Positions 18,813-51,000 are shown, counted from the first letter of the stretch. The stretch: 64,000 nucleotides of DNA from Candidatus Aenigmatarchaeota archaeon (GCA_016198755.1 JACQIB010000004.1:32001-96000); one strand, 5' to 3'. Numbers and translations: made by a program. The notes: generated by a model not told the origin, from the letters alone.

Positions 18813-21800
18813 TTACTTTGAATTCCCCTCATTGTACAAATCATTTCTAACCAGCTCTTCTACAGCTATAGCAGCAGGGAACAATACACCTTTTTTCATA
18901 AATTCTTCATATTTCTTCTCCACAGACAGTGCAGCGTCCAGAAAATCCTTATCTCCTGTAACTACCGCCTGCTCCCTCAGTTGTTTAACCAAAAACCTGT
19001 AAAAATCATAAGAATCCTTCCCAATATTATTTGCATACCTGTTATGTACAAAGTCTATGGCACCCAGGTTATTTTTAGCTGCAAAAATATCTGCAGTTAC
19101 CTCATCCAGTGCCCCAACATCATCTACAATTTTATTCATTATCCAGTTCCTTACTTTTTCGGATTTTATATTGAAATAATATATCCAGAAATTTTCGCTT
19201 TCAAGAGCAGCCTTATGCCCAATTTCATGCTTGGCAACAAACCTCGGTACACTTTCTCCAAGCCAATCCTTTACATCACTTTTTAACTCGCTTATAGGCT
19301 TAGTATAAAAGCTGATTTTTTCTGCACTGTTCCCAAACCACCATGTAGTTTGTATTCCACCGACATTCTTTTTATAATCGGACGCCATAGTCCTCCCATA
19401 AATTGTCGTATCCAAAAAGTGTCCCGAACTCTCAGAAAACTCATATTTTGTGCCTTTCTTTAAGTCAGGCAACTCTGCTTCAATTTCTCCAACATTCTTT
19501 ATCATTGCCAATTTTATCCCAGATCCAACAGTTTTTGCACTACTACCCGACAACTCTATAATACCTCCCCCAGTTTTCACAATAACTATCTTGTCTATAC
19601 CTTCCCATTCTGGCATATCCAACTTGTTTGCCAAATCAGATGCCATATTTTCTATGTCTTCCGAACTTATATGAGAGTCCTCTCCAACTTCTATTAAAAC
19701 TGTCTTTGTTTTTCCCTCATAGCGTTTTAGCTGCTGCGCCTTTACGCTTATTCTTTTATAGATGGCATCTGCAACATTTTCTTTGCCAGAATCCCTACCA
19801 ATTCTCGAGTGCTCCACAATCTCATCACCCACTTCAAAATCAGGCCCAGATTTATTTTTCTCGCTTAATATTATCTTTTCCGGGTCTGTTATTGGTTGCT
19901 TTTTATTCGCTATATATCTAGCAAACGCTTCCCTACCCTCTCCATTCTGATTTTTCTCTACAGTCAATATTTTTTTCATTACCTTTGCTGCACCTTCTGC
20001 CTCTTTCTCTGTTAATTTTCTTCCCACATTAACTTCAATTTCCTTTACCAGTCTTCCAACATCATCCCCATATTTTTCTATTATAGTGGCAATAGTTTTC
20101 TCGTTCTTTAGAGTATTAAAAAAAAGTTTTATGGCTTCCGGTAGGTTTTTTATACCTCCCAATGATTTCAAAATCTCCCCCCCAAAGAACAACTGTACAA
20201 TATCCCCGACAAATCTGCCCTTGTTTTCTGCAGATGAGCTGTAATACTCTGCCATACCCTTGCTTAATTCTTTCAATCCTTCCAAAACTTCAATTGGATG
20301 TCCTAATACCCATAGGCCAGCCTTTCCAACAGACACCAAAACACTTGCAATATCTCCTATAGGATCCTGCGAGTTTTTCAGCCAATTTGAAAGATATGCT
20401 GGAAAGTCTGAAATAACGAATTTTCCAGCCAAAACAAGGCTCTTAAAAGAATCGAAAAAGGATTTGAGGAATCCTCCGAGAAATTCAAGCCCATCTTTTA
20501 TGAGCTGTGTGGCTCTATCATAGTAAACCATATAAGTAGAATATTCCACAGGCTTTAACCTCTCCTCCTCTGATTGATTCAGAAAATCGTTCCATTCCAA
20601 AGCTATTGTTTCCATGCTTACGCCTTCCTCAATCATCCTTAGCACTTCATCTTTCGTTTCCCCATAAAGATCTTCCTTTGCCTTTTTAGAAAAATAGTTC
20701 CTGTTCCACTCATCCTGCAGCCTAAGCTCCTCCTTCCACTTCTTAGCTATATAGTCCTTTTTGCTCTCCCTTAGATTTTTATAATATGCTTTTGTTTCTG
20801 TGAAAAGTTTGCTGTCTTTCCCAATCCTGCTGCTTATGCCAGACTTTTTTGGCTGGGAATCCCACTCCACCATCTCCCCGTCTGGAGGCAATACAGCTTC
20901 CTCCTCTTGTTCAGGCGTCCATATTTTGGGAAGTTCTGGCGGGTTTCCAAAATCGATATGTCTGTTTTCTGCCCTCTTTGTTTGAACCGGCAGAATAAAA
21001 TCCACTAGTTTTCCTACCGGAGTTATTGTAACATTCTTTTCCGGACTTTTTACTTCAGGCAAGACTGTGCTTAAAACTTCTGTTACGCGTTCAATAGGGG
21101 ACTTGACAAGCTCAACAGCAGGTTTTATTGCGCGGAAAATAGGCGTTGCCATATCTTTAACAGTTTCAATAACTCCAGAAACCGCTTTTTTAACTGGTTT
21201 CAAAAGATCTGAAAAAAAGCCCTTAAAATCATCTATAACAGGCTTTACAGTTTCAATTGCTTTAGACACAAAATCATTAGCAGTATGCAAAATGCCAGTG
21301 AAAACATCCTTAACGCTGTTAACTATATTTGGGATAATGGGAATTGTTTTTTGTATATCGTTTACAACAGCTTCAAAATTGCTGACGATATTTGAAACAG
21401 GGATGCGCACAGGATCTTCTGTAATCACTGCACGTTTTCTTATATAGTTGTCCCAGGCAGCGCTTGCTTTCAACCTTTCAGCCGTTTCAGTATCAAATCT
21501 CCTTGACCAATACCCATCTTTCTCCTGCTCTATGAAAGACAGAACTGTTTTTGCCTTGTTTTTTAGATATGCTCCGTAGGCTGTGAATCCTGATTTTATG
21601 TTTTTTATCCTCCCTTTCCCTGCAAAAATTCCTATAGCATAAGCTCCGGCTGCCACAGCAGCTGCCCCCGCAGCCAGTGGAAATACAGCTATATCATTGT
21701 TTCCATTTGTCCCTTCATTATTAGACCCGCTGTCCTGTACAAATGGGGACACAACAGCAGCAGCCTCAGGCTCCTCTATATCAAACTCCATCTTCCATAC

Positions 21801-23633
21801 AGTTTTCTTCGGCAGCTCAGAAACCTTTACTGTTTTAAAATCCCTCTTTTCCAGCCAGCAGTAATCATTATGGTTTAAATTTCTCGATCCAGGGCTTGGA
21901 TATGTTTCCTCATTGTCAGAATACCCATAGTTGCAGAATGAGCTCGCATAATCCATGTTAACGCTGCCACAATTATCAGAGCCTGTTATAGTATTCCCAT
22001 TCCTATCGAAAATAATCTGTTTTGTCGTTATATTCCCTACAGGTTCCTGATTTGCACACAAAGTTTCTATATGTTCCCTATAATATCCAGGTCCCTGATT
22101 AAACAGATATCTCAACTGTTTAACAAAATCTGTTTTCCAATAATCAAGAGTATCATCCAAACCATACTTTTCCTTTGGATTTTTATAGGACATTATAGCC
22201 GGTATTTCTATCTGCTTCAGTTCCAGTTTGTAGTGGCCGCCAGAGGAAGTGTCAACTGAAAAATACTGCTGCGGGATGTTTATGATAGAATAATAATGGT
22301 ATCTGGTGTTTGGAGTATAATAGGGATCATAAACGTTCTCATATCTGGTAACTGTTCCAGAATTCCAGTTAAAGGTTTTCAATGTCTCTTCTGTTCCATT
22401 AGGATATGTTATTGTATAGTAGAAAAGGTGCTGGTTTTTGCTATAATAATTCTTGCCTGCAATCTGGTTTTCCGTTATCTCAGAAAACGAATAGGGATAG
22501 GAATTGAAACTGCTGTATTGGTACTTTCCTGGGCTGTACCAGTCTCTCAGGAGTGCTGAAAATGAAGGTGTTGTTATAGGCTCCTCTTCCCCCCCAACAG
22601 AAACAGCCGGTTCAATAACAGAGTACTTCCTTAACCTTATCGTATCTATAAACCCTCCAATACCCTTATCAGCAAGGCAGTCTGAATCCCCCCAAGTTTC
22701 TATTCTCTGTGTTGGATGATCATCATCCACCCGTTTATTTCCCACTTTCCTGATTCCATCTATAGAAATATCAGCATAAGTCCCATCTGTCTTATAGCTG
22801 ATCTGATACCATTTGTTTGGCTCATAATAGCCGCCATCATACCAGTTATCTTTCCAATATCCCTCGTACAAATGACTGGAATAACCCCAATGGCTCACTG
22901 GAATTTCATTTGCTCCACACCTTCCAAACTGCAAAATCGCAGGGCGCGAGCCAGTTCCAATGTTAAGAGCGCCTGCTGTTTGATTTGGGTACAATTCCAG
23001 ATCCAAAACAAACTTTTTCAGCTGTTCTGGCAGAATAGTGTATGAAGGTTCTGCATTATCCGCGGTTCCCTGTACAAGCATACTGTTCTCTCCGCGGAAA
23101 GCTTCCAAATCTGAAACGCTCACATCTGCAAATGCCGAATCCACCCACCCCTGTGGTTGCCTATCTTTGAAATCTGCAGATTCCTTATCAAAATCCTGGT
23201 AAAAATCAAAAGTTTCCTTCCCACTGCTCCCATATTCAGGAATCTCAGCTCCATAGTAGGCATATATATTTTTTTCTCCCCCCGCGGGGATATTATCAAC
23301 TTTAACCCAGAAAACAGTCTCTTTTGTCCCGCAGGTTAAATAGTCTACCCAGAAAGGATAGGGTTTTGTCCAGCTGGAGTTGTCAAAGCTTTTAGAATCC
23401 GTAAACCTTACATCAGCACATGAAGGTGAAATTTTGTCCTCAGCCAAAAGCCTTTCCGTATCCAGTGTAATTTTTACCTGAAAATCCGCAAGCTCCTGTC
23501 CGCTATTCTTTATTGTTATTGGAACTCTATAATCAAACCCTGCAGCAAAAGCTGGAAGGGAAATAAAAATAGAGAAAATAATAAAACAGACCAAAAACTG
23601 CAATTGACGTATTTTTGTTACCAATGTCCCCAC
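18813..23633 (-). CDS. Giant membrane-anchored mosaic protein: DUF2341 + lectin-like + shared domain, TM, pre-toxin region, PD-(D/E)xK-like nuclease, HExxH peptidase
   Basis: Signal peptide; YRVPITI...DFQVKI...DVRFTD...FWVKV...IYAYYG (DUF2341); SPFVQDSG + TM; GPDFEVGDEIVEH...KAQQ; KHEIGH...EVTAD. Confidence 0.8.
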   Translation of the reverse strand: MGTLVTKIRQLQFLVCFIIFSIFISLPAFAAGFDYRVPITIKNSGQELADFQVKITLDTERLLAEDKISPSCADVRFTDSKSFDNSSWTKPYPFWVDYLTCGTKETVFWVKVDNIPAGGEKNIYAYYGAEIPEYGSSGKETFDFYQDFDKESADFKDRQPQGWVDSAFADVSVSDLEAFRGENSMLVQGTADNAEPSYTILPEQLKKFVLDLELYPNQTAGALNIGTGSRPAILQFGRCGANEIPVSHWGYSSHLYEGYWKDNWYDGGYYEPNKWYQISYKTDGTYADISIDGIRKVGNKRVDDDHPTQRIETWGDSDCLADKGIGGFIDTIRLRKYSVIEPAVSVGGEEEPITTPSFSALLRDWYSPGKYQYSSFNSYPYSFSEITENQIAGKNYYSKNQHLFYYTITYPNGTEETLKTFNWNSGTVTRYENVYDPYYTPNTRYHYYSIINIPQQYFSVDTSSGGHYKLELKQIEIPAIMSYKNPKEKYGLDDTLDYWKTDFVKQLRYLFNQGPGYYREHIETLCANQEPVGNITTKQIIFDRNGNTITGSDNCGSVNMDYASSFCNYGYSDNEETYPSPGSRNLNHNDYCWLEKRDFKTVKVSELPKKTVWKMEFDIEEPEAAAVVSPFVQDSGSNNEGTNGNNDIAVFPLAAGAAAVAAGAYAIGIFAGKGRIKNIKSGFTAYGAYLKNKAKTVLSFIEQEKDGYWSRRFDTETAERLKASAAWDNYIRKRAVITEDPVRIPVSNIVSNFEAVVNDIQKTIPIIPNIVNSVKDVFTGILHTANDFVSKAIETVKPVIDDFKGFFSDLLKPVKKAVSGVIETVKDMATPIFRAIKPAVELVKSPIERVTEVLSTVLPEVKSPEKNVTITPVGKLVDFILPVQTKRAENRHIDFGNPPELPKIWTPEQEEEAVLPPDGEMVEWDSQPKKSGISSRIGKDSKLFTETKAYYKNLRESKKDYIAKKWKEELRLQDEWNRNYFSKKAKEDLYGETKDEVLRMIEEGVSMETIALEWNDFLNQSEEERLKPVEYSTYMVYYDRATQLIKDGLEFLGGFLKSFFDSFKSLVLAGKFVISDFPAYLSNWLKNSQDPIGDIASVLVSVGKAGLWVLGHPIEVLEGLKELSKGMAEYYSSSAENKGRFVGDIVQLFFGGEILKSLGGIKNLPEAIKLFFNTLKNEKTIATIIEKYGDDVGRLVKEIEVNVGRKLTEKEAEGAAKVMKKILTVEKNQNGEGREAFARYIANKKQPITDPEKIILSEKNKSGPDFEVGDEIVEHSRIGRDSGKENVADAIYKRISVKAQQLKRYEGKTKTVLIEVGEDSHISSEDIENMASDLANKLDMPEWEGIDKIVIVKTGGGIIELSGSSAKTVGSGIKLAMIKNVGEIEAELPDLKKGTKYEFSESSGHFLDTTIYGRTMASDYKKNVGGIQTTWWFGNSAEKISFYTKPISELKSDVKDWLGESVPRFVAKHEIGHKAALESENFWIYYFNIKSEKVRNWIMNKIVDDVGALDEVTADIFAAKNNLGAIDFVHNRYANNIGKDSYDFYRFLVKQLREQAVVTGDKDFLDAALSVEKKYEEFMKKGVLFPAAIAVEELVRNDLYNEGNSK

Positions 23634-23686
23634 GCACTATTAGTTATCTAAGCATAAAAATAGCTGCTTTTTATCATACGACACTC

Positions 23687-26600
23687 TTAGCGCGGCAATA
23701 TATCCATTAACTGATCCTGCACTTCCCCAGCTTCAGCTTCACTCCCAACTTTCCCTTTGTCTATTGTATTGGTTAGCCAATTGTCCATAATATCCTTTGC
23801 TTCATTGTAGTCGGCTTCGCTGACTTTACCTTTATTTATTAAAGCTTTTATCGGTATGTGCGCTTGGTTAGCAAGCCTGCTATCCCCAGTTCTTTTAGCC
23901 AAAAGCTCCGCAGAAATAATACTTTCAATCTGAGTGGCAGAAAACTGCCTGTCAATATTTTCATTCAAAGCATCCGTTATATCAGCTACCCTGTAATTTA
24001 CCATATCCTTGAATACCTTATCCCCAGCCTTTACTCTAACTAACGCATCAGCTTCCAGTTCATTGAACCAGGTTTTGCTTCCGTGTTCGAATTTCTCCAT
24101 ATAGAAACCTAGATTTCCTTCAAATCTATTCTTTGCAATAAACACATGTCCCATTTCGTGTGCGAAAACAAAGTCTATTACCCTAGGCACTATTGGCGTT
24201 GAGCTTCCAATCCTTATTGTATCAAAGTTTGCCTGTGCAAATGTTCCCTTCTCAACATCCCCCACAACAATTTTATTTGGACTAAACCCAAAGTTTTTCT
24301 CCTGCTTTCTAACAGCTTCCTGCAGCACTTCAAAATCCTCTTTATTGAGTGAGGATAGAGGTTTGTCCCTGCGTATAACACCTACCGCAGCTTCTCCAAA
24401 TGCAAAAACAGACCTGTCTAAAATAGCATTCACTGCGTTGTCCATATCCTCTATAATACCCCCATACCTCCTCTTTCCCTCCTCATTCGCCAGAACCATT
24501 TTCGCAAGTTCGTGATGTGTGGTAAACAACCCCCCAAGGTTCAATGTCATTTTTGCAAAATCAGTTTCCAGTTTTGTGAAAGTTGAAAGGGTATTGGAAG
24601 TCTTTAAGTCAACACCAAGCTCCATGAGATTGTTTCCTTTGACAACAACAATTTTGTCTATGTTTTCCCAACCAAAAGAATCTGCAGTTTTTAAGTCTTC
24701 TAACATATCTTTAGCATCATCCAAATCAAATTTAGATTTTTCTTCTATTTCTATAAGAACAGTCCTTGTTTTGTCCTTTACATATTTTAACTGTTCTGAC
24801 TTGTTTCTTAATCTCCAAGTAATATCTCTGTATTCTGCAGGTGTTCCTATTTTTGTATGTTCTATAACTTCCCCAGGAATTCCATAATCCAATAGTTTTG
24901 GACCGGCTTTAGGTTCTATAACTAAGTCCATGGTGTTGGTTATTGGGACGTCTTTAGTTGCCAGATATTTTGAAACAGCTTCCCTACCTTCCATGAGTTT
25001 TCCTGTAGAATCTCTTGATTCTAACAGTTTTTTACTAACCTTTGTAATGTCTTCAATTTCCTCTTTTCCAAATTTCCTCCCAGATATTTTAACAGTCTGT
25101 TCAACAACTCTTGCAACTTCTACTCCATAGCTCTTGGTTATTTGTTTTAAAATACTTTTAGTCAATCCTGACCCTTTCAGCAACTCTTTGGCCCCCTTAC
25201 TCCCAACACCGCCACCAATAAGACCTAATGGTGCGAACATAGCTCTAGTGGTATCGTCCTCATCAGCTCTTCCAACACTCTCCTTTGCTCCATAAACAGC
25301 CAAATCAGCAGCAGAACTCACAGCTCCCAGCCCAATACCAGCAGCTAGTATTGGAATTCCTATACCACCAACAGGAGTCAACACAACCCCTGCTGCTATC
25401 AACCCAATACCAATCAATCCCATCGCATCTGCAGATTTCTTTATTTCCTCGCTCTTATCTACAACAAAGTCTCTAGCACTGTTCACAGCATTTATAATAG
25501 GCTGCCCAATCAAAGGAATCTTTCCTACAGTATCCAGCACTCCACCAACAAGCTTCTTTGCATTCCCCAGAACATTCCCAAAGAAGCCCATAACATTATC
25601 CAAAATTCCCTTTGGCTCAGCCTTTGCTGGAGCCGAAACTAAAGGTGCAGCAGGTTTTCCTAGCTCAGGAGTATAAACAACAGCAGGCCTTGCTTCAAGT
25701 TGACTCTGTATTTGCATTCCTAAGCCAGCTAACTGCGCAGACAGCTCTTTGTTATCAGAATTCTCAGACAAATACTGCATTCTTTCCACAAACCAGCCAG
25801 GATCCCCCTTTCCAGACTTTAACATGTCTATTGCTTCCTGCGCTTGGTTAGCAGCCCAGATAGTTTGTTTATTTTCCTCAAGCCACTGGGCTTTCTGTTT
25901 CTCAGCCTGTGCTGCATTGAATTGTGCCCACATTGCAGCTTCAGCTCTCATCCTAGCCTCCCAAAGCTTTACCCAGTATCCATTTTTCTCTTCCTGTATA
26001 AAGTCTAAAATTTCCTTTGATCTTTTCAAAAGATTATTCCCATAATCTGTAAACCCTTCCTTTATTCCAGTTATAACTTTTCCAGTACGTGGGCTCCTGC
26101 TTAGCAAAACAATTCCGCCTGCTCCCGCAGCAAGCACAGCTCCGGCAGCTAATGGGATTGCTGCGCCTCCTGCTGCCCCAGCATTTTCATTCCCTGTCCC
26201 GCCCCCTCCAGAATCCTGAATGAACGGGTTTGAAATAAAGTTTTCAGCTACTCCAGTATCCCCGTTATCATAGCTTACAAATATTGGCTGTGAGAATGTA
26301 TCATTCCTCTCATCTGCCCGTGCAACAAATTCTAAAGTATAATCTCCCTCTTCTTGTGGTGAGAACAGGAAAGGATAAGTTGTACTACTCAATTTGGGAA
26401 TATTTAAACTCTCTATATCAGTTTCTGCTTTGTATATTCTAACTTCGTCTATAGCACCCTTGAAGTATTCGTTGTTATTCCAAAAGCCAGCTCCAATAGC
26501 CTGCTGCCTGTTTGTTTTAACCTTCCCTGTCATTGGCCTTTCAAAGTCCAGCTTCCCATCAACATACCCGCGTGCATATACACCATCATAAACATACTCC

Positions 26601-29600
26601 ATCTTGTGCCATTCCCCATTGGAAACAATATTTTGCCCTCCCCCATTATAGAACTGGCCATTTTCTGTTGTTAGGTGGTAGCGCAGAGTGTTTCCGCCAG
26701 CTGTAGCAGCAACCCCAACATCAGTCCAATCCGGCCCGCTTCCATATATCCATCTCCATGTACCGAAATCATCCACCTTGAACCATGCTTCTATTTTGAA
26801 CCCACTCAAGCCATTCAGAATGTTTGGCACTTCAATTCTCTGTTTGCCATCAAAACTGGCAGCCTGCCCTGAAAATCCTCCTGTAAACACAGCCGTATTA
26901 TTAACAATTATTCTAAAATCAGAGATTGTTCCTATGTAGTATTCGTTCTTGTTCCATGTACCAGCCCCGATAGCCTGCTGGCGGGAAGTCTTTACCTTCC
27001 CGGTTATCTGCCTTGAAAAGTCTAATTTCCCGTCTATATACCCTGCTACAACATTTCCATCATACACATATCTCAGATGGTATACTTTTCCTGGAACAAG
27101 TTGGGTTATCCCATTCCCATCATAGAATGCGCTGTTTTCTGTTGTCATGTGGTAGCGCAAAATGTCCCCGCCAGCCGTAATAGCAACCCCAACATCAGTC
27201 AAATCCGGCCCATTCCCATATATCCACTGCCAGTTTGCCTGTTTATTGTATGTAAAATATGTATTTATCTCGAAATTCCCAAGTCCGTTTATGACATTTG
27301 GAACATCCATTTTCTCAGAGCCACCAAAAGCAATATTACCCATGGCAGAATACAAAACTGTCCCAATAAGATTGCCATTTCTCTCCCCAATGCTGTCTAT
27401 AAAGTTCCCATCAAAGCTCCAGTTTGCTAATAGTGTGTATTTCGGGGGCGTGCGGTTTTTGGAGAGCATATTTGAAATATACGCATTCATGTCCATCGGG
27501 CCCTGCGGTCGCATCCCAACAAGGTAAGTATTGTCTCCATAAGCAGGCTGCAAAAGCTCGGGGTTAGAAAAATCGCTTTTCAGAACCAAATCCCCTTTAT
27601 CTACAGTCAACTCAGAAAGCAGGAAAGAAACCCTCAACTCCCCAAGAGCACGCACTTCAGCACTCCCAGGCTCCGGAGGCTGGCTCAATGCCTGCTCCAT
27701 TACTTTATTTCCATCCAGAAGCCAGACAACCTTGTCTTTGTAAACATCCAGTTCAAATGTGTGTTCTGTTCCTGACAAGTCCCCTAAAAATACTGATGGA
27801 GGCCACTGCTGCCCAACAGGTATTACATCAGAGACAGCATAGAGTCTCCTGTACCATCCATCCCAGAAAAATCCCAGAAAGTTGTTCATAGGGAAATTTT
27901 CTTTGGTTCTGTACATCATTTGTATATTGTTATAGTTCAGCTCACTATACCCAGCTTCTATAGTTCCTTTCCATTTGATTTTTACAGGATAACCAAATTT
28001 ATCCTGTGTTTTGAAAGTTGCAGAGCTACTATACCAGCCGCATCCATTAGGATCACCACCACACCCATGTCTATCATATCGTGATTCTGGTGAAGGTTGT
28101 GCCGGGAAATTTGTGCCTCCGGAAAGCTTTAGTTTTCCATTCTGCAAAATATAGGGTTTCCCCCACTCGGGCTCTGAAATTATAGAGAATGTATAGCTTG
28201 AATATTTATCCACTGCAGCTTGGTTGCTTGCAGTAAAGTTCAGGAATTTATCTCCCCCATTAATATTTCCTGTAATCTGTCCGTCTCCCAAATCTATTTG
28301 GAACTCTTTTAGCTGGAATTCCACTGAACCCCCATAAGCTATTATTCCAATTCTCGAAGCTGGCAGCGGGTTTGATAGCGCTACTTCGTTAATCTTGTTC
28401 CCATCCAAAAACCAGACAAGCTTATCCTTCAAAACCTGCAGTTCATATGTGTGTTCTTTGTTGACTTCTGGCTGGCCCAAATTAACATTACCCACGTAGT
28501 TTGTATTCATAGCACCGCTATCAAAGGTACCAAGATAAAAACCAATAAAATTCCCATTATTATGTCCCATTGAAAAATCTTCTTGATCCCCATAGACCAT
28601 ATTCACCATACCAGCCTGGTAAAAAGCATATTTTCCCTTCCACTTTATTTTTAGCGGATATGAAAATTTATCAGTTGTAATTATTTTCCTGTATCCTATA
28701 CCATCGTTTGTTATTTTCATAAATGATGTATCCCCCTTTACTTCAGCTCCGAGCTTCAAATAAGAATATTTTTCTTTTGTTTCTTCCGCGGTCTGCGTTT
28801 TCCAAACATTCATTATCAGGCCCGCGGGCTCAGAAGTGTTAATAAAAAAGAAAGCATCCTCAGCAGGCCTGAAAGCAGGATTTGTTTTGCACTCTATATC
28901 CCCGCAAGCTTTAACAGCAGTTATTGTTAAGGGCTGTTTAACATCAAACTCGTGAGTCCAAATAACCCCAACCTGCAAATCCTTTACTTTAATCTTTTCA
29001 AAATTATTTCTTTCAATCCAGCATTTGTCTGTTCTGGCGTGGTTTACATAGCTTCCATACCTGTCATTTTCCGTATATTCATAATAATTATATTTACATA
29101 CATAGCCTGAAGCAGGATTCATGTTATAGTTCCCGCAGCTTGTTGTAGGGTAATTTATTGGGCCATATCTGTTTACTGTCACAGCTGTTTTCAGAGTAAT
29201 GTTACCAACAGGTCCCTCTGCTGCACAATTTTCATCCCTATACTCTCTCCACCAATCCCCATTGTTCCATGAAGAGGAATAGTACATCGTGTTTATGGTT
29301 TCTGCCCGCCATTTATCCAGCTTATCCTCAAGATTATAATTTTCCATTGGGTTCTTAGACAACATTATTTTCGGTATTTCAACCCTTCTCAATTCCACTT
29401 TATAATGTCCATAATCCGATATATCGGCAGTAAGATTCATAGCTGTGATATCTATTTTTGAAGTATAGTGGTACCTGTATTCCGGTATCCACTCAGGAGT
29501 CATTTTCACATAATCAGAACTCGTTGCATCTGCAGTGTTTATTCTCTGCTCATAGAGAACCTTTTCAGTACCGTTAGGATAAACCAGAACATAATAGAAA

Positions 29601-29881
29601 ATATTATAACCATTTCCATAGTTGTTGCTTCCTGCAAGCTCTCCCCTAACTTCCCTATGGGAAAACGATGAGCCATCTGGAGCAGAATAATGATAAACGT
29701 AGTCCCCTTCAGAGTACCAGTCCCTGAGCACAGCTGAATAGGACGGGGCTTGAACTGAATAGGTATCTACTCCAGTTCCCTTCTCTATAACTTCAGCTGC
29801 AGCAAACTGGGCAAAAAACCCTAAGAAAACAAGGGCAAATACAGCTGAAATAATCACTTTTCTATACATTTGTCCCCCCAT
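23687..29881 (-). CDS. Giant membrane-anchored mosaic protein: shared domain + 2 ConA-like + 2 LamG domains, TM, glycine-zipper, nuclease-like domain, HExxH peptidase
   Basis: Signal peptide; duplicated lectin domains (YDG...GY-DGKLDF...AIGAG; FKGAIDEVRIY); NPFIQDSG + TM; LLDYGIPGEVIEHTK...KSEQ; AHEMGH...ELEAD. Confidence 0.8.
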   Translation of the reverse strand: MGGQMYRKVIISAVFALVFLGFFAQFAAAEVIEKGTGVDTYSVQAPSYSAVLRDWYSEGDYVYHYSAPDGSSFSHREVRGELAGSNNYGNGYNIFYYVLVYPNGTEKVLYEQRINTADATSSDYVKMTPEWIPEYRYHYTSKIDITAMNLTADISDYGHYKVELRRVEIPKIMLSKNPMENYNLEDKLDKWRAETINTMYYSSSWNNGDWWREYRDENCAAEGPVGNITLKTAVTVNRYGPINYPTTSCGNYNMNPASGYVCKYNYYEYTENDRYGSYVNHARTDKCWIERNNFEKIKVKDLQVGVIWTHEFDVKQPLTITAVKACGDIECKTNPAFRPAEDAFFFINTSEPAGLIMNVWKTQTAEETKEKYSYLKLGAEVKGDTSFMKITNDGIGYRKIITTDKFSYPLKIKWKGKYAFYQAGMVNMVYGDQEDFSMGHNNGNFIGFYLGTFDSGAMNTNYVGNVNLGQPEVNKEHTYELQVLKDKLVWFLDGNKINEVALSNPLPASRIGIIAYGGSVEFQLKEFQIDLGDGQITGNINGGDKFLNFTASNQAAVDKYSSYTFSIISEPEWGKPYILQNGKLKLSGGTNFPAQPSPESRYDRHGCGGDPNGCGWYSSSATFKTQDKFGYPVKIKWKGTIEAGYSELNYNNIQMMYRTKENFPMNNFLGFFWDGWYRRLYAVSDVIPVGQQWPPSVFLGDLSGTEHTFELDVYKDKVVWLLDGNKVMEQALSQPPEPGSAEVRALGELRVSFLLSELTVDKGDLVLKSDFSNPELLQPAYGDNTYLVGMRPQGPMDMNAYISNMLSKNRTPPKYTLLANWSFDGNFIDSIGERNGNLIGTVLYSAMGNIAFGGSEKMDVPNVINGLGNFEINTYFTYNKQANWQWIYGNGPDLTDVGVAITAGGDILRYHMTTENSAFYDGNGITQLVPGKVYHLRYVYDGNVVAGYIDGKLDFSRQITGKVKTSRQQAIGAGTWNKNEYYIGTISDFRIIVNNTAVFTGGFSGQAASFDGKQRIEVPNILNGLSGFKIEAWFKVDDFGTWRWIYGSGPDWTDVGVAATAGGNTLRYHLTTENGQFYNGGGQNIVSNGEWHKMEYVYDGVYARGYVDGKLDFERPMTGKVKTNRQQAIGAGFWNNNEYFKGAIDEVRIYKAETDIESLNIPKLSSTTYPFLFSPQEEGDYTLEFVARADERNDTFSQPIFVSYDNGDTGVAENFISNPFIQDSGGGGTGNENAGAAGGAAIPLAAGAVLAAGAGGIVLLSRSPRTGKVITGIKEGFTDYGNNLLKRSKEILDFIQEEKNGYWVKLWEARMRAEAAMWAQFNAAQAEKQKAQWLEENKQTIWAANQAQEAIDMLKSGKGDPGWFVERMQYLSENSDNKELSAQLAGLGMQIQSQLEARPAVVYTPELGKPAAPLVSAPAKAEPKGILDNVMGFFGNVLGNAKKLVGGVLDTVGKIPLIGQPIINAVNSARDFVVDKSEEIKKSADAMGLIGIGLIAAGVVLTPVGGIGIPILAAGIGLGAVSSAADLAVYGAKESVGRADEDDTTRAMFAPLGLIGGGVGSKGAKELLKGSGLTKSILKQITKSYGVEVARVVEQTVKISGRKFGKEEIEDITKVSKKLLESRDSTGKLMEGREAVSKYLATKDVPITNTMDLVIEPKAGPKLLDYGIPGEVIEHTKIGTPAEYRDITWRLRNKSEQLKYVKDKTRTVLIEIEEKSKFDLDDAKDMLEDLKTADSFGWENIDKIVVVKGNNLMELGVDLKTSNTLSTFTKLETDFAKMTLNLGGLFTTHHELAKMVLANEEGKRRYGGIIEDMDNAVNAILDRSVFAFGEAAVGVIRRDKPLSSLNKEDFEVLQEAVRKQEKNFGFSPNKIVVGDVEKGTFAQANFDTIRIGSSTPIVPRVIDFVFAHEMGHVFIAKNRFEGNLGFYMEKFEHGSKTWFNELEADALVRVKAGDKVFKDMVNYRVADITDALNENIDRQFSATQIESIISAELLAKRTGDSRLANQAHIPIKALINKGKVSEADYNEAKDIMDNWLTNTIDKGKVGSEAEAGEVQDQLMDILPR

Positions 29882-29971
29882 CTATTTGTATAGACAGTTT
29901 TAAAAACCTATCTTTTGTGGCAACACTGCTCTGGAAACCGCATATTTATACATTTCTTTCCAATTCTGTAC

Positions 29972-30316
29972 ATGATTTTTCCGGATTCTGGGAGGCGCCC
30001 AACAAGCTGGGACCAAGTTAGGATTTTTGATGACTTGGTTTCGTCTGAGGATGCAGAAAAGACAAGAGCCATACTATCCGGAGCTGAAAGGCGGTGCCCA
30101 TACCTTAAAATGCAGGGAAAATGGCCTTATTGTGGAAAGGGGCAGGTAATTGAGCCAGATGCACCTCAGCTGAAACCAACCCCAGACAATCCAATCTACA
30201 ATACCCATCTGGGTCATGAGTTTATGGAAATTTTCTGTGCAAGGGATTTTGAGGAATGTCTGGTATACAAGGGCGAAAAATCCCATAGGGCAGATTGGCT
30301 TGAAAACCTGCGCTGA
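29972..30316 (+). CDS. Hypothetical Cys-containing protein (possible metal binding)
   Basis: ATG at 29972 after a TTTATA box; CPYL...YC...C-x4-C pattern. Confidence 0.55.
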   Translation: MIFPDSGRRPTSWDQVRIFDDLVSSEDAEKTRAILSGAERRCPYLKMQGKWPYCGKGQVIEPDAPQLKPTPDNPIYNTHLGHEFMEIFCARDFEECLVYKGEKSHRADWLENLR

Positions 30317-30353
30317 CTGTACAATGGAGGCTTTCCAATAAAATTCCAATATA

Positions 30354-32453
30354 CTAAATATTCCTGTTCCTTGGTCCCCCTAATGTTCCTTTAGAATAAT
30401 AAGACCTTGCTGCTGTTGAGCTTACAGTAGACGTGCTGGGATAGGTGGACTTGCTAACAGGGCTTTGACGATCAGAGGGGGATATGGGCATATCTCTTGG
30501 ATAGGTGGACTTTGTAGGCGTATCATACATCACATACCCATCTGCTCTGGTATAGTCCTTAGTAGCGTCCCTTGCAGAAGGGCCAGTCCATTTCTCTGCT
30601 GTCGTATAAAAATCAGATACAGAAAACCTTTCCAAAACTGACAACACTTCAATTCTGCTCGCTGTTTTCCACAACCCTGCGTTTGCCACATTAAGCCATA
30701 ATCCAGTTTCATTCTCGGGGGCATATGTAACGTTAGTGTTTATGTATTTTTGATTATTAATTGACCATAAAACCGAGAGATCTAAAGTGTTGTTAGTGGC
30801 TCCAGTCGTATAGGTTCCCAGATCAACTTTCTGCGGCATTACATTGCCAAAATAGCGTTCTCCTGGTCTTTGTTCTGGATTTGAATAATTGAGTATGGTA
30901 TTAAGTACACCAATGTAGGAAGAGAACAGTGTAGAGGCGACAGCAATTATTATATTTCTTGTATCTCTGAGTGCATAGTCCCATTTCTGTTGTTTTATAC
31001 TTATATCTAAATCGCGGCTGTTAGATATGATTCCAAATAGCGTACCAATAAATGGTATATTACCTAGTTTATCTATATCATCAGGTCTTTTCTCAATACC
31101 TGTGGCGTATACAAGTTCATCCTTTAGATTTGAAATCCTATTTTTTATACCGCTCCATTCTTTGGACTTTTCAAGGGCAAGGGAAGGATTAGGGTGGGTT
31201 TGCCACCCAATATAAGGTTCATATGCTTTTCTTACGTTTTCTTCTTCATAATTTAGTCTAGCAGCGAGCTTCTGAGCCTCGCTAATGGTCATCCTAGTTC
31301 CTAAAATTCTTTCTCTTGTTTGATAATAAGAAATCAAATTTTCTACCATATCGATTGCACTTGTATTGTAGGACTCGCCATATATTCTTACAAGTCCCAT
31401 TTCTGGATCTACAAGGGATATGCTGACAGGTTTTATCTCATTTTGTTCTCCAAAAGGAGACGATTTAAAATCTATAATGCTCCCCTTCTCTTGTCTCACA
31501 TTCTCAGAACCAACAAAGCCACCGCCAGTTCCAATACTATTCATCATTGTAGCGCCCGTTTTCAAAAGAAATCTACCATATCCAGTTCGCACAGCAATAT
31601 AGACACCTGCAACGGCGACAGTTCCGATAACACCTGCCACAGCTAACGGCAAAGCACTGCTGGCAGAGCTGCTGTTAGAATTGGTTTTTGTTTCCGAGCC
31701 AGAAGGGAAAACAAAGGGAGATGTTACCAAACCTGTTGCATCGGATCCATCAGCAGGAAAATAAGCGTCTGTTCCAGTTCCGTTAATAAAGTTCCAGCCC
31801 TCTTTAACAGGCTGATAGCCAAACCCAGAATTTTCCACTCTGTACAGATCCCATTTATCCACAGTAGTGTTTTCCCAGTGCGGATCGGATTTCCACCTAT
31901 AGTAAGATACATCTTGCCTGATCCAGCCCGAAGTTTTAATTATTGCCAAAATCTTGGCATTTGCAAGCTGCAGCCGGTGGCAACTGCTTTGCGTATCAGA
32001 ATCTACGCCAGCACCACCACATTGTTTCCACCAGACACGCCCATCTGGCCAAATCTCATAATATAATGCATAAATGCTATAGCCCCAATGCAGCCATTCA
32101 GCTTTTATCCATTCGTATTCCCCCTCTACAAAAATAGTTTCATTTTTCGGCCTGTTCTCATAAGAAAAATAATAATCATTATATTGTCCATATCTCCAGC
32201 TTGTATTACTGTAGTTAGTAACTGTTCCCAGAGGCCAGTTTACCACTAGTAGTTGGTGTGCAACAACGGTCTTTCCATCAGCATCATTCTCAATAACACT
32301 TGCAGGTGCTGAAGAATAATATTCAAAGTGAGGTTGGTCTGTTGATGCCTTGAAGGAATAATCTGCTGCAAAAGCTGGCAAGGAAAACAAAATAGCTAAC
32401 ATTAAGCCAAGTGTTGCTATAAAAATTGTTCTGTTAAAAGCTTTCGTGTACAT
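30354..32453 (-). CDS. Membrane-anchored protein of the same PFxxxSG family with unrelated C-terminal region (alternative ATG at 32477)
   Basis: Signal peptide (..LPAFAA), SPFVFPSG linker, LPLAVAGVIGTVAVAGVYIAV TM; TTTAAA box about 25 nt before the ATG at 32453. Confidence 0.75.
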   Translation of the reverse strand: MYTKAFNRTIFIATLGLMLAILFSLPAFAADYSFKASTDQPHFEYYSSAPASVIENDADGKTVVAHQLLVVNWPLGTVTNYSNTSWRYGQYNDYYFSYENRPKNETIFVEGEYEWIKAEWLHWGYSIYALYYEIWPDGRVWWKQCGGAGVDSDTQSSCHRLQLANAKILAIIKTSGWIRQDVSYYRWKSDPHWENTTVDKWDLYRVENSGFGYQPVKEGWNFINGTGTDAYFPADGSDATGLVTSPFVFPSGSETKTNSNSSSASSALPLAVAGVIGTVAVAGVYIAVRTGYGRFLLKTGATMMNSIGTGGGFVGSENVRQEKGSIIDFKSSPFGEQNEIKPVSISLVDPEMGLVRIYGESYNTSAIDMVENLISYYQTRERILGTRMTISEAQKLAARLNYEEENVRKAYEPYIGWQTHPNPSLALEKSKEWSGIKNRISNLKDELVYATGIEKRPDDIDKLGNIPFIGTLFGIISNSRDLDISIKQQKWDYALRDTRNIIIAVASTLFSSYIGVLNTILNYSNPEQRPGERYFGNVMPQKVDLGTYTTGATNNTLDLSVLWSINNQKYINTNVTYAPENETGLWLNVANAGLWKTASRIEVLSVLERFSVSDFYTTAEKWTGPSARDATKDYTRADGYVMYDTPTKSTYPRDMPISPSDRQSPVSKSTYPSTSTVSSTAARSYYSKGTLGGPRNRNI

Positions 32454-32595
32454 ATAAGAATAAGGTGCTTCAGACATTTAAAGTATGCCTATCATGTTCG
32501 TCTTTTGCTTTACTCTATTTCCATCAGCCTTTCTCGCACTTCCTCAGCTTCTGTGAAAATAATATCTTAAAATAAGTCAACTCCGAATAGAATTT

Positions 32596-39069: not shown

Positions 39070-39091
39070 CAGTTCCAACAACTCAGATTTC

Positions 39092-40194: not shown

Positions 40195-40230
40195 TTCTGC
40201 AGGAGACAAATCTTTATATAGGACTAAAAT

Positions 40231-40265: not shown

Positions 40266-40269
40266 TAAA

Positions 40270-45175: not shown

Positions 45176-45210
45176 TCCCCTATCTACCTCTGCACAAGAA
45201 TTTAAACTTT

Positions 45211-45666: not shown

Positions 45667-45730
45667 GTTAATATTTGCAGTTTCTGGATTAAAAATAAGA
45701 CTTATTTAGTACCCAGCATAAACATTTTTC

Positions 45731-47152: not shown

Positions 47153-47414
47153 TTTTCTTTGCTCTATCTTCCATTATTTTCTTTGTTTCTCCCTGCAGCT
47201 CAGAAGCCTCAGAATGTATAGAACCCACACCGCCTCTTGCCAACCAAACAGAATTTTCCAGTGGCTCAAACAGTTCTTTCGGATCCCCGCTTACAGGACA
47301 GCACCAGTCCTCAGGAACATTATCCCATTTTGTGCCAGCAGCAATATTCTCTTCTTTCCTTCCTTGCTCTTCATCATAGACAAACCCGCAACCCACACAA
47401 ACCATTTTTGCCAT
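47130..47414 (-). CDS. Rubredoxin-like protein with C-terminal extension
   Basis: CVGCGFVYD...GT-W--VPEDW-CPV. Confidence 0.8.
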   Translation of the reverse strand: MAKMVCVGCGFVYDEEQGRKEENIAAGTKWDNVPEDWCCPVSGDPKELFEPLENSVWLARGGVGSIHSEASELQGETKKIMEDRAKKIKETGSS

Positions 47415-47466
47415 CTGAAGCCTTTAGGGCGCAGGCTTTTAAAGCTTTCCAGCCAACAAAATTGTT

Positions 47467-48006
47467 ATGGTAGAAGCGGATGTAAATGGGTTTTTGAAAT
47501 GTGTTCTAGTTGGACACAGAAAAACTGCTGTTAATATACTATATAATCTCAACCCGAATGTTGATGGACCAGCGTATGCTGAGCTGGTAGGAAAAGTTAA
47601 AGAGCTATATAGTGGTGCAGAAATAGATTATGTTTCAGAAGAAAAAGGCATAACATTGCACTTTTCCTTAACAGAAAAAAATGCAGGTTCAGCTTTTTTG
47701 CAGCGTAGATTTATGGTAGGTGGCGGAGTTCCGGATGAAAAACCAGTTGATGTGTTACTAACTGCAAATAGCTTAGGTCTGGATTTGCCGGGTTATATGG
47801 CTGAGATTATACCTGATGGAAGTGGATGGAAGTTGAATATAGCTGGGAGAAAGGGTGGTGCTGTTCAGGAAAATCCAGATGGTATGGGATTTACTGCGGA
47901 TGCAGAAGAGCCGGCTGGTCCACGGGCAATAACAGATGTGCAATTAGCCTTACTTACAATTGGAAAAGTATACGGTTTTGAAACAGAAGAGCCAGCACCA
48001 GCCTAA
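47467..48006 (+). CDS. Hypothetical protein
   Basis: 179-aa ORF filling the gap, TTTTAAA box upstream, no recognised motif. Confidence 0.6.
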   Translation: MVEADVNGFLKCVLVGHRKTAVNILYNLNPNVDGPAYAELVGKVKELYSGAEIDYVSEEKGITLHFSLTEKNAGSAFLQRRFMVGGGVPDEKPVDVLLTANSLGLDLPGYMAEIIPDGSGWKLNIAGRKGGAVQENPDGMGFTADAEEPAGPRAITDVQLALLTIGKVYGFETEEPAPA

Positions 48007-51000
48007 ATAACATTGTTCTTTCCAAAGAAGTTTTTAACTTTATCAGCAGCCCTATCGTATATGCTGCGCGGTTTGTCTATAACAAATCCCTCTGCTTTTG
48101 AAACTTTAACATCCTTTGATATCTGCCCTCCAAAGTTTCCTGATAATGCTTTCCCATCTACCCCACGCGGAGATTTAAATATATCAAACAGCTCTGCTAT
48201 TCTCTCTTCAGCAGCAGCTTTGTTTCCAATCCTGCCCTTGTCAATAGTGTTTTTAAGCCAGTTATTCATTGAAATCTGAAGTTGAGCATACTGTTCTCTT
48301 GTTATCAATCCTTTATCCACAAGCAATTTGGAAATACCCTGAGACTTCCTTATTAACAATTCATCTCCTGTCCTTATAGCAAGCAGTTCATTTGCTACTA
48401 CATTTTCTATTTCCCTCTGATTAATTTTAACTCCGTCCAAAAGCTTTGCAGCATCATCTGCTTTGCTCTCTTCCACTAATAATTCTACTCTGTTTCTGAA
48501 AACATTCTCACCATCCCTTACATTTATCAGCGCGTCAGCTTCTAATTCTGCAAGGTAGGATTTTTTAAAAGCCACAGGCCTGTAATTGAAATCCAATTTT
48601 CTTGCAAATCTCTTCTGTGCAACTTCCATATGGGCAAACTCATGGGAAATTGTTCCCCTCCTGATCAGTTCCGCAGCTGATGTTTTCTGGTCTATGAAAA
48701 GTGTATCATAGCTTGATCTAGCCCATGCATCATTCTTTCCGAAATCCCTATATTCTATATTTCCCAGTTTTACATTATAATTTCTTGCACCCTTCCCTAT
48801 CTCACCCCTAATCATTCCTAAATGGGATTTTTGCAGGTTTGTCAGAGTATCTGATGATATTTTCCTCCCACTCCAGTCTGTTACAGCTCTTGATACAGTT
48901 ACTTTCTCCCCTTTAACAAGTATAGTTTCCACTATTTCCGGAATTTTAGCAGCCCGCGCTGCAGCAACCCCCCCAGCCCATGGAAGACTCATCACAGGCA
49001 ATCCAGCATGCCCTGCTTTTCCATAAATTCCATTCACGGGTTTTACTTTTTCAGTTTCCTTAAGCAGCCCTAAAGTTATTTGGCGTGTTTCCTCATCTCT
49101 TACTTTTTTTTGTATTAGTTTCTCCAATATATCCTGCACATCTTTCTTTGAAGCGCTCTTCTCTATAGGTATACTAATTTGCTTTCCGAACAATGTCACT
49201 TTCTTATCGTATTTGTAACCAAGTTCACTCATTTTTTTCAAATAATTCAGATAGGTTTCTCCACCATATTCTAAAGCTACCAAATCTGCAAGTTCCTCCT
49301 TAGCTTCGTTAAACATTATATTTCGCATACTTGATTTCATTATAACGTCATTCTCTTTCAGTATGTTTTCAGCAACAATAATCCCCTCCGAAGTATCTAT
49401 AAACGGGTGTGCAACTGCATGTTTTAACACCGCAATATTATCTGGTGTAATAGCTTCTCTGGTCAGAATTATTTGCACTTTTTTTGTGCCAGGTATATAG
49501 TAAATAAATTCTTTCTCTATAACATTCTTACCTTCCTTTGTTATGGTATCTACTACTCCGACTTCAACATCCCATCCTTTCAATCCCAATTTTTCAATTT
49601 CTTTTTTTGCCATATTCTGTATTAATTTTGGAGCCTTTACGCCACCTGAAAATTCTATTCCACCCTTTCCTGCGGTTTCTATTGCCATTTGAAATTTATT
49701 TTCCCAACTTGTCTTGCTAAGGCCTTTTTCAGCATCCTTTAGAACAGTACCGGCTTTTTTTGCATCTACAACTTTATTAATTTTATTTCCAGCTTTTCCC
49801 AACTTACCAGCCGTTTCAACTCCTTTTCCAATTTTCCCAGCTGCATTTGCAGCCTTGCCTGCTTTGCCAGCCAAACTGCCTGCTTTCCCTGCTTTAGCTG
49901 CACCCCCCACAGCCCCGCCTCCAACAAACAGCTGCGCAACCTCTCCTACACATTCACCTGCATTTTCAGCAGAGCCTGAGCAGTAGTCCCAAGCTTTGTG
50001 CGCCAGCTCCTTCACTTTTTCTTTGACTTCATCAGGATGGGAAGCAACCCATTCTACTTTTTCTTTTGCAGTTCCAAGCGCTCCCTTCACATCTCCCCAA
50101 TGATCCTCGCTTGTGATTGCCCATTCATAGCCAGCTTTCCCCACATTATAAACAACCTTTGGGAGATCGTAAACCAGTCCCTTCACAGTATTGTAAACAG
50201 ATTTTACAACACCCACCTGGAATTCTGCAATTTGCATTGTTGAATAGAAGAGGTTTCCTGCTAGAGATGTCCCCTTTGCAGTATTAGCTGTCTGCTTCAA
50301 TTTATTCCAGCCATCCTGAACACTTCCAACAAATCCCGCAGCTTTATCCTTCAGCTTTCCCCAGAAACCTTTCTGTGGCTGCTCAGTATACAATTCCACT
50401 TCAGGAGCCGGAACAGATGAAAAATAGGCTTTAGGCTCTAATATCACTGTTTTAACAGGTGGTTCAGGCCGCGGGAAATATATTGAGTTTGGGTTACGCT
50501 CTATTTTTAATTCAGGCTGGGGCTCAGGCTTCGGGAAAATCCCCAGAGCAGCCCACTTAGCATTTGTCTCAGCTCTGCGCTGCGCGCGATAGGCGCTCGC
50601 TTCTCTTCTTGCTTCCGCTTCCCTTTCTCTCTCCCTCTCCAATCGTATCTTCTCCAGCTCTTTCCAATATTTGCTTGTGCTTGTTGATTCTGCAAACTTT
50701 TCTTCAAAGCTTTTTGTTGGCTGGTTTTCGGTTTCAATCTCCTGACTTGTTTTTGCATTTATTTTTCCAATCCAATCTCCTATAGAAGATCTCCTTGTTA
50801 AAGCAACTCCAGCAGCAGCCGTCCCCCCAAAAAGTAAAAGAGAGAGCAAAGGATTTTCCTGCGCAAATGCTGTTGCATCTCCAGCCAAGTCAAACTCATT
50901 TTCACTTCCTTCACCGCTTGCCAGAATAAAAGGATTAGAAGCTGGGGTGAACAGCGGTTCCTCCTGCGCGTATAAGGCAATATTTCCTATATTTCCCATT

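Follow-up and report, generated by a model that had tools for sequence, protein, structure and literature searches.

Evidence for module exchange among giant adhesin-like membrane proteins of a DPANN-like archaeon

A 64,000-nucleotide stretch of DNA from Candidatus Aenigmatarchaeota archaeon (GCA_016198755.1, JACQIB010000004.1:32001-96000; in our numbering of the source genome G000:C2:32001-96000), referred to here as the window, contains three giant genes, G1606, G2064 and G1663. Their products belong to a family of predicted membrane-spanning proteins whose modules have very probably been exchanged by recombination between copies and between strains. As an overall explanation we lean, by a modest degree, towards shuffled payload proteins that are anchored by adhesin-like outer parts. 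An initial annotation of the window had recognized the three genes as paralogues and had proposed recombinational mixing at both the receptor and the effector end. All three genes and their pairwise similarities were confirmed, although the family proved to be larger, with eight genes in the genome, and mixing at both ends is supported by conflicting module trees, identity breakpoints and the mosaic structure of relatives. The labels 'receptor', 'effector' and 'pre-toxin' given to the modules are interpretive.

Common plan and exchange of modules

Using tblastn and BLASTP, nine open reading frames (ORFs) of the family were found in the source genome. Besides the three giants these are G2079 and G1894 on contig 3, G1279, G1260 and G1074p on contig 2, and G470p on contig 5. 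Contig 5 at its end (L017) and contig 2 at its start (L015, L028:1-3226) share an exact overlap of 71 nt, so G470p and G1074p are the halves of one split gene (about 1520 aa), contigs 5 and 2 are neighbours, and the nine ORFs represent eight genes. The overlap falls inside the membrane helix of the split gene, where the contigs break within a repeat shared with G1279. The members are built on a common plan. A signal peptide (apparently of the Sec type and cleavable-looking) is followed by an ectodomain that varies between members and by a conserved stalk with a single membrane helix; a charged linker then leads to a type I or type II junction, behind which lie one to three enzyme cassettes. 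The ectodomains are of the DUF2341, LamG/ConA-like, E1-module and other kinds; the E1 module matches no Pfam family and its best Atlas score is only 0.79. The stalk motif xPF[VI]xxSG is followed by a Ser/Gly/acidic run and by a Gly/Ala-rich membrane helix that in the majority of members starts with (I/V)PLAAG. Lys and Arg are absent from the 20 residues ahead of the helix in 12 of 12 proteins (eight ORFs of the source genome and four relatives), and two to five of them occur among the 20 residues behind it. This charge asymmetry, together with the signal peptide, predicts an external ectodomain and a cytoplasmic location for the C-terminal 900-1000 residues, a topology that we consider probable.

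The junction tree separates two types, each supported 100/100. Type I (G2064, G1074p and P0016) carries a hydrophobic Gly/Ala hairpin, and type II (G1606, G1663, G2079, G1894, P0012, P0013 and P0015) the motif W..HP.E...C.GSA.NAGEC.GE.AQLFVGGG. In most members the junction is followed by a short helical adapter (YG..V..LV....GRKLT..EA) and then by the cassettes, which comprise a nuclease with a putative restriction-endonuclease fold, HExxH zincins of two types and modules of unknown kind. None of the pre-toxin or toxin families in Pfam scores above its cut-off in these proteins.

The modules shared by pairs of giants were compared by BLASTP. G1606 and G2064 share the E1 ectodomain module (residues 339-628 and 31-323; 37% over 296 aa, E = 1.2e-51), as had been proposed. 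The positions originally given for it, 21780-22575 and 28940-29745, fall inside the aligned blocks 21750-22619 and 28913-29791, and its placement does differ, after about 340 residues in G1606 and directly behind the signal peptide in G2064. The same two proteins share the nuclease-like part that had been ascribed to both (1044-1361 and 1437-1755, the junction included; 30.5% over 334 aa, E = 1.2e-25). G2064 and G1663 have in common the terminal peptidase (1842-2064 and 1384-1610; 32% over 230 aa, E = 7e-27), and all of the motifs originally quoted for it (HExxH, ELEADAL, ELLAxRTGD and NWLxNTIDKG) are present in the translations. The third pair, G1606 and G1663, shares the 'pre-toxin' region (1050-1149 and 924-1023; 37% over 100 aa, E = 1.9e-12). 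The pairwise modules are thus real and well beyond what chance would give, but the statement that each pair shares a different module holds only in part, because the signal peptide, stalk, membrane helix and junction are common to all three. The G2064 junction belongs to the other, divergent type (type I), a further match joins G1606 627-876 to G2064 1216-1507 (E = 3e-11), and the C-terminus of G1606, too, is formed by an HExxH domain (HEIGH, residue 1469) with the motif order of the shared peptidase.

Per-module trees across related genomes, the check suggested in the initial annotation, were calculated on a small scale (13 sequences); they are incongruent and favour shuffling. These trees contain few sequences and long branches, and the groupings to be tested were chosen after the BLAST tables had been viewed. 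G1260, G1279 and G470p, which have no junction by BLAST, were omitted from the junction tree, the split gene from the stalk/membrane tree and P0017 from all trees. The E1 tree unites G1606, G2064 and P0013 (99/99), and the stalk/membrane tree unites G2064 with P0013 and also G1279, G1260, P0015 and P0016. Three groupings drawn from the ectodomain and membrane modules are rejected by the junction data in approximately unbiased (AU) tests: G2064+P0013 (p-AU = 3.9e-4, a difference of 40 log-likelihood units), G1606+G2064+P0013 (p-AU = 1.4e-4) and P0015+P0016+G1074p (p-AU = 8.6e-4). Conversely, the stalk/membrane data reject the G2064+P0016 grouping of the junction (p-AU = 1.5e-55). These two modules lie no more than about 200 residues apart. 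For a grouping that has no bearing on shuffling, an E1 test gave p = 0.105.

Breakpoints were located by sliding identity between G2064 and P0013. Identity is 22-62% in E1 and 76-94% over residues 286-760 of G2064; residues 786-1136, which hold the two LamG domains, have no counterpart in P0013. Over residues 1161-1436 it is mostly 64-94%, with two windows at 50-52%, and it then falls from 86-94% to 22% inside about 50 residues, to remain at 8-24% across the junction and nuclease (1461-1800) and at 26-60% in the zincin. Beyond this breakpoint P0013 has a junction of type II (42% to G2079) and a module like zincin B, and then, after a further junction, which is partial, a zincin A. The other relatives are mosaics as well: P0015 has a G1260-like N-terminus (65%) and a G2079-like C-terminus (32%), P0016 is G1279-like (50%) with a G1074p-like C-terminus (36%), and P0012 carries a C-terminal half like that of G1606 (36% over 593 aa) on a different ectodomain. 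The E1 module starts at residue 31, 339, 805 or 51, depending on the member. The clearest breakpoints lie directly before the junction and others within the ectodomain.

Within the source genome, nucleotides 1060-1865 of G1279 (L014, G000:C2:16450-20289) form an 806-nt tract that is 93.5-96% identical to the split gene and spans the stalk, helix and linker. The flanks have diverged (20-88% protein identity in the ectodomains, unrelated C-terminal parts), and the tract looks like a recent gene conversion. Strain variation was seen in the four groundwater metagenome runs, all from one study, that contain DNA of the source genome. In run X2, position 18793 of the window is joined to 23694 by a contig of 478 nt (4.7x, about 90% identical), which thereby reveals a related strain that is without the whole G1606 gene and its spacers; eight letters at the joint fit both sides, and ggcaata is found at both ends (18793 and 23694). 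A contig of run X4 (3.9x) joins 26347 to 27503, skipping 1155 nt that correspond to the LamG region missing in P0013.

Some points weaken the case for exchange. The X2 and X4 joints each rest on one low-depth contig, the latter with only 32 letters on one side, and the relatives' proteins are known without contigs, so that P0013 and G2064 cannot be demonstrated to occupy the same locus. By the zincin A tree, G2064 and P0013 may still share a common origin (AU p = 0.35), as plain duplication, divergence and differential loss of modules would have it, with no exchange between copies. Tandem cassettes do occur (P0013 has two HExxH modules), and an ancestor with many modules is conceivable. Loss is nevertheless a very improbable account of the whole, since neighbouring modules reject one another's groupings reciprocally, identity collapses within some 50 residues, and two paralogues that have otherwise diverged share a tract of about 95% nucleotide identity; moreover, partners that both have a junction carry different types of it, which loss cannot create. 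Assembly chimeras, for which the division of the genome into six contigs and the splitting of one family gene at a repeat might speak, can practically be dismissed: a 68-kb contig of run X1 spans window positions 17500-30500 with 0 differences, three more runs cover the same interval in overlapping identical pieces (these runs, X1 included, may be the source samples), the ORFs are intact over 4.8-6.2 kb and the mosaic relatives come from other sources (ENA, NCBI and Logan).

Nuclease and zincin cassettes

The nuclease-like part of G1606 and its terminal domain were modelled with AlphaFold2 (AF2) from a five-row alignment. The mean predicted local distance difference test score (pLDDT) is 61.3, with values of 64-86 across most of the nuclease part. 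With this model, Foldseek returned as top match a CdiA-CT toxin from Burkholderia pseudomallei (PDB entry 4g6v, chain A, 4g6v_A; E = 7.7e-3, probability 1.0), followed by MUS81. VIA, an independent all-against-all structural aligner, also ranked 4g6v_A first (Z = 8.3, root-mean-square deviation 3.6 Å, 118 of 132 residues), ahead of an XisH-like protein (Z = 6.6), a type IIS restriction enzyme (6.2), three CdiA-CT chains (6.1) and NucC (6.1). These values are to be read against best Z scores of typically 7-8 for models that have no clear match, and all Foldseek E-values exceed 1e-3. On the same stretch of G1606, the Pfam family CdiA_C (PF18451) scored E = 0.011 (16.3 bits), under its cut-off of 26.6. 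The residues PD...E[IV][IV]EH[ST][KR] are kept in all three close modules (G1606, G2064 and P0012), and the model places PD on one strand and E[IV][IV]EH[ST][KR] on the neighbouring strand; the nuclease modules of G2079 and P0015 have the canonical D...E.K. The module thus probably has a restriction-endonuclease fold with a PD-(D/E)xK centre, and in the model it appears closest to the CdiA-CT contact-toxin nucleases, with borderline fold scores.

For zincin A of G2064 the AF2 model has a pLDDT of 80.9 and a predicted template modelling score (pTM) of 0.78. It comprises three strands, a helix that bears HExxH and another that bears the invariant ELEAD (helices 100-121 and 140-153); His109, Glu110, His113, Glu142, Glu144 and Asp146 are invariant in all five aligned sequences. 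The weak Foldseek matches (best E = 0.036) are nearly all zinc peptidases and include M61, an M48-like enzyme, abylysin, selecase (probability 0.99), Ste24, ACE and IrrE. VIA gave BepA (Z = 8.2), HtpX (8.1; root-mean-square deviation 2.6 Å, 80 residues) and Ste24/ZMPSTE24 (7.3-7.4), with M1 enzymes, minigluzincins (6.0-6.5), thermolysin, Wss1 and BlaR1 (5.3) lower down. Pfam returned only Reprolysin_2 (E = 0.14), and a structural Z of 8.2 is not decisive for a named MEROPS or Pfam family. That the HExxH cassettes are zincins we hold with high confidence; the HExxH helix, the Glu on a later helix and the predominance of zinc peptidases among the matches indicate that zincin A is a gluzincin, with a predicted core like those of the M48 enzymes and minigluzincins. 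Zincin B is carried by G1606, G2079, G1074p, P0012, the middle of P0013 and P0016, and its motif order HExxH ... E.xAD ... TGD is that of zincin A. In G1074p, a second hydrophobic helix at residues 729-747 precedes an extra HEYGH...EESWAD domain (residues 729-1074 in all; L015, G000:C2:2186-3226), and by the topology rule this domain would be back outside.

The features of the three giants are listed in Table 1. The ConA/GH16-like region of G2064 matches GH16 weakly (E = 0.013) and an arabinanase of known structure (PDB entry 5hon, E = 4e-6). An ectodomain like that of G1663 was recognized, by eye only, at locus L003 of the relative G017. For the middle cassette of G1663 the best Atlas score was 0.83 (phage 'Peptidase', LPD23, and Tox-MPTase4 in 15% of members), which provides leads only.

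Table 1. Features of the three giant genes (positions in the window; aa, residues of the translated protein).
Feature	Position	Strand	Basis
G1606, whole gene, 1606 aa	18813-23633	-	ORF, translation
G1606 aa 72-156: DUF2341 ectodomain	23166-23420	-	Pfam PF10102, E 1.9e-15
G1606 aa 339-628: ectodomain module E1 (YPNGTE...GHYK..E..IP)	21750-22619	-	BLASTP to G2064 aa 31-323, E 1.2e-51
G1606 aa 629-671: stalk SPFVQDSG and membrane helix	21621-21749	-	Hydrophobic 653-671; Lys/Arg 0 upstream, 5 downstream
G1606 aa 1040-1165: junction ('pre-toxin') type II	20139-20516	-	Alignment A1; type II clade 100/100
G1606 aa 1166-1363: helical adapter (YG..V..LV....GRKLT) and PD-(D/E)xK-like nuclease	19545-20138	-	Pfam CdiA_C below cut-off, AF2 model, Foldseek, VIA
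G1606 aa 1385-1606: HExxH zincin type B (HEIGH...EVTAD...VTGD)	18816-19481	-	Motifs; BLASTP to G1074p, E 1e-19; helical core in model
G2064, whole gene, 2064 aa, 53 nt upstream of G1606	23687-29881	-	ORF, translation
G2064 aa 31-323: ectodomain module E1	28913-29791	-	BLASTP
G2064 aa 324-1160: ConA/GH16-like region and two Laminin_G_3	26402-28912	-	Pfam PF13385, E 1.3e-26, two stretches, best 1011-1151
G2064 aa 1218-1260: stalk NPFIQDSG and membrane helix	26102-26230	-	Stalk motif, hydrophobicity, flanking charges
G2064 aa 1437-1560: junction type I, Gly/Ala-rich hydrophobic hairpin 1489-1529	25202-25573	-	Alignment, junction tree
G2064 aa 1561-1760: adapter and nuclease module	24602-25201	-	BLASTP to G1606; alignments
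G2064 aa 1830-2064: HExxH zincin type A (HEMGH...ELEADAL...RTGD...NWLTNTIDKG)	23690-24394	-	AF2, VIA, Foldseek
G1663, whole gene, 1663 aa	48003-52994	-	ORF, translation
G1663 aa 26-686: own ectodomain, two similar halves by eye	50937-52919	-	Translation; only weak Pfam match
G1663 aa 687-733: stalk NPFILASG and membrane helix	50796-50936	-	Stalk motif, hydrophobicity, flanking charges
G1663 aa 900-1045: junction type II	49860-50297	-	BLASTP to G1606 and to G2079 (43% over 201 aa); tree
G1663 aa 1046-1374: middle cassette, kind unassigned	48873-49859	-	No Pfam at E<=0.05; Atlas leads all <0.9
G1663 aa 1375-1615: HExxH zincin type A	48150-48872	-	BLASTP, motifs, alignment

Candidate roles, neighbouring genes and distribution

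As shuffled, adhesin-anchored payload proteins, the family members would bind the surface of a host or competitor through the adhesin-like ectodomain, and the membrane helix would keep the C-terminal 900-1000 residues on the cytoplasmic side. The junction and cassettes would constitute the active payload, processed by the built-in zincin, and the payload would enter a partner cell via cell-to-cell contact or act at the contact. Shuffling would diversify both the binding target and the enzymatic action. For a payload directed at another cell we put the chances somewhat below even. More tentative still is the idea that DPANN archaea possess an effector system that is polymorphic and anchored in the membrane: a shuffled outer adhesin would be linked by the single helix to a shuffled inner toxin cassette of junction, CdiA-CT-like nuclease and zincin, and contact would cause the cassette to be cut loose and to pass into the host via fused or bridged membranes. 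Such a system would require neither a secretion machine nor a neighbouring immunity gene, since the payload would be latent until processed, or the producer would be without its target. The junction, which in type I has the Gly/Ala-rich hairpin, would then serve for entry or release.

Several points weigh against payload proteins. The predicted place of the cassettes is inside the producer, and although they might be released later, a classical exported toxin is not indicated. The fold matches are borderline and come from models built on alignments of five sequences, and sequence searches of the PDB with the nuclease alignment (A4) and the zincin A alignment (A5) gave no match to a solved structure. 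Zincins A and B, which we think are distant kin, were not joined by hhalign (probability 16%). No recognizable immunity gene was found: G1606 and G1663 are followed by convergent genes, and the small ORFs after other members have neither a Pfam family nor paralogues. A HicB/HicA antitoxin-toxin pair lies directly downstream of G1894 (L030:3537-3990, G000:C3, minus strand; Pfam E = 1.9e-10 and 1.3e-17) and is an ordinary HicAB. Nor were orphan cassettes seen.

Two other functions were weighed, each of which we regard as unlikely, and to a similar degree; by sequence alone they are inseparable from a payload aimed at a partner. The proteins could be transmembrane sensor-transducers that act on their own cytoplasm, as BlaR1 and MecR1 do: binding by the ectodomain would switch on the cytoplasmic zincin, which would cut its own protein or a regulator, or free the nuclease, for example for suicide or defence against a virus or hostile contact. 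BlaR1 couples an outer sensor to an inner zincin. The N-out, C-in topology predicted for all 12 proteins agrees with such a function, as does the resemblance of the zincin core to membrane-associated M48 enzymes (BepA, HtpX and Ste24), with BlaR1 among the matches at Z = 5.3; latent enzymes, too, need no immunity gene. However, no PADLOC model matched the four of eight members scanned (PADLOC and NCBIfam together gave nothing except a weak TafC match), no DNA-binding partner or target is evident nearby, and cassette swapping at a junction, with eight divergent copies in 0.89 Mb, typifies proteins of conflict or host contact rather than signalling proteins.

Alternatively, the family could consist of import-processing machines of the kind proposed for the SPEARE proteins, with the ectodomain holding the host and the tethered enzymes digesting incoming host nucleic acids or proteins, as food or for the safety of the symbiont. 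The topology and the LamG-bearing ectodomain are as in SPEARE, for which this role is proposed by its authors (PMC6642349); the genome is small (0.89 Mb), and a tethered, local nuclease would need no immunity gene. Against this, the nuclease resembles CdiA-CT toxins most closely, not type III restriction enzymes, Pfam detected neither a ResIII nor a helicase family in the three proteins and their pieces, and feeding leaves unexplained both the wholesale replacement of cassettes at a conserved junction and the rarity of the family among relatives.

The source genome (890,842 bases, six contigs, 89% complete) is archaeal and DPANN-like, to judge from its archaeal genes, an archaeal small-subunit rRNA, its groundwater origin and the small genomes of its relatives (0.3-2 Mb, mostly 0.5-1 Mb). 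The archaeal genes encode a replication factor C small subunit, a Hef nuclease and a digeranylgeranylglycerophospholipid reductase; no tRNA gene was found in the window. None of the sequencing runs listed as containing DNA of the genome is an RNA dataset. The initial 85 kb of contig 2 are dense in giant genes. Two of another kind, of 2195 aa (full length) and 932 aa, occupy window positions 3-4760 and 4822-7620 (G000:C2:30173-39620) and are weakly similar to one another and to window 12303-13475, and ORFs of 1105, 1534 and 1071 aa lie further up. G2064 is preceded upstream, at a distance of 472 nt, by a 707-aa ORF of the same strand (30354-32477, minus); its one match, to DUF6425, is below threshold (E = 1.6e-4), and the ORF could be part of the same unit as G2064. 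Downstream of G1074p, a 346-aa ORF (L028:4632-5672, G000:C2) matches Gp53-like_C, a C-terminal domain of phage tail fibres, weakly (E = 0.0018), and has a single paralogue in the window (11266-12279; 27% over 275 aa, E = 4e-20).

The family occurs in one lineage only. Among 1,835,955,588 representative sequences, the junction profile matched ten proteins at E <= 1e-3, namely five of the source genome's own, four clear relatives (P0012, P0013, P0015 and P0016) and the doubtful P0017 (748 aa; E = 5e-4, five stretches), a repeat protein of different build whose match is probably due to chance in low-complexity columns. The junction is present in two of 371 genomes of the class (the source genome and G011), and zincin A in one of 42 genomes of the order, the source genome. 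When the whole of G2064 was searched, 11 relatives gave LamG-only matches, G011 and G017 gave junction matches, and G006 gave one weak match to residues 1160-1260 (E = 7e-4). G011 (L002, C25) and G017 (L003, C22) belong to other families of the same order and have a single gene each, on the same plan. That of G017 (at least 895 aa) encodes a signal peptide, ectodomain, stalk, membrane helix, type I junction and zincin B; that of G011 encodes a signal peptide, almost no ectodomain, a membrane helix and a type I junction, and its ORF runs off the contig end before the cassettes. Scans of JGI metagenomes yielded no relative, either with alignment A6 (92 pattern matches) or with A5 (at least 599 pattern matches, one tblastn match). 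The latter match, L031, was rejected as a relative, being a bacterial gene resembling chain-length regulators. Word-based homologue searches, in which 8000 candidates were scored and which are weak evidence, returned only the query for P0003 residues 900-1663, and for A5 only P0013 and the source genome's own P0018 at longer lengths and none at near lengths. A handful of proteins in 1.84 billion is a narrow range, which limits generality and suggests fast turnover of host-contact genes.

Comparison with known systems

No published description of the family was found in literature searches; it may be listed in the 2019 archaeal toxin survey (Makarova et al., mBio). In archaeal toxin loci, PD-DExK nucleases and Zn-dependent proteases are described as hallmarks and DUF4157 as a signature (PMC6393860). 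A PD-DExK-like nuclease and Zn-dependent proteases are predicted here as well; DUF4157 was not matched in the three giants at E <= 0.1, nor in their pieces at E <= 10. With BlaR1/MecR1 (M56), HtpX, Ste24 and BepA the family shares the predicted gluzincin core, HExxH with a Glu on a later helix. In contrast to BlaR1 and the M48 enzymes, zincin A forms a soluble domain at the C-terminus, behind the nuclease and well away from the membrane helix, and there is no sequence match.

The SPEARE proteins of Nanohaloarchaeota have a variable LamG-bearing outer part, one helix and a cytoplasmic nuclease part, and gel fractions of different size yielded their outer and their inner portions (Hamm et al., 2019; PMC6642349). 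The likeness extends to giant size, DPANN origin, several copies per small genome, the LamG ectodomain, the single helix and a C-terminal nuclease part predicted to be cytoplasmic. A conserved inner part like type III restriction enzymes, an outer serine protease and a BC-toxin-like region are SPEARE's own in the same text; no such domain was found at Pfam E <= 0.1 in the three giants or at E <= 10 in pieces. Compared by description and not by sequence, the family differs from SPEARE in that its inner part is variable, with a CdiA-CT-like nuclease and zincins behind a junction.

Polymorphic toxins combine an export signal, an adhesion part, a junction, a peptidase and a C-terminal nuclease swapped by recombination, and as a rule archaea lack them (Zhang et al., 2012; PMC3482391). 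The present family resembles such CdiA, Rhs and MafB proteins in its export signal, adhesion part (LamG_3 and DUF2341), conserved junction and built-in peptidases, in the wholesale replacement of nuclease and metallopeptidase domains after the junction, and in a modelled nuclease fold that is nearest to four solved CdiA-CT toxins. It is unlike them in that a membrane helix parts the adhesin from the predicted cytoplasmic cassettes, no adjacent immunity gene is recognizable, the ectodomain is shuffled too and the host is DPANN-like. Because outer and inner parts are swapped as in bacterial contact toxins, the family is likely to be a tool for dealing with a host cell. Little is known of the ways in which DPANN archaea attach to, feed on or damage their hosts, and candidate molecules are few; the family offers a concrete, testable set, with enzyme domains that keep conserved catalytic motifs, a defined topology prediction and natural cassette swaps at a known border. 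What is new is the combination, in a DPANN-like archaeon, of cassette exchange of the polymorphic-toxin type with a SPEARE-like membrane-spanning build and shuffling at both ends: exchange of this kind, thought to be rare in archaea, very probably operates in a symbiont genome of less than 1 Mb, the binding end included.

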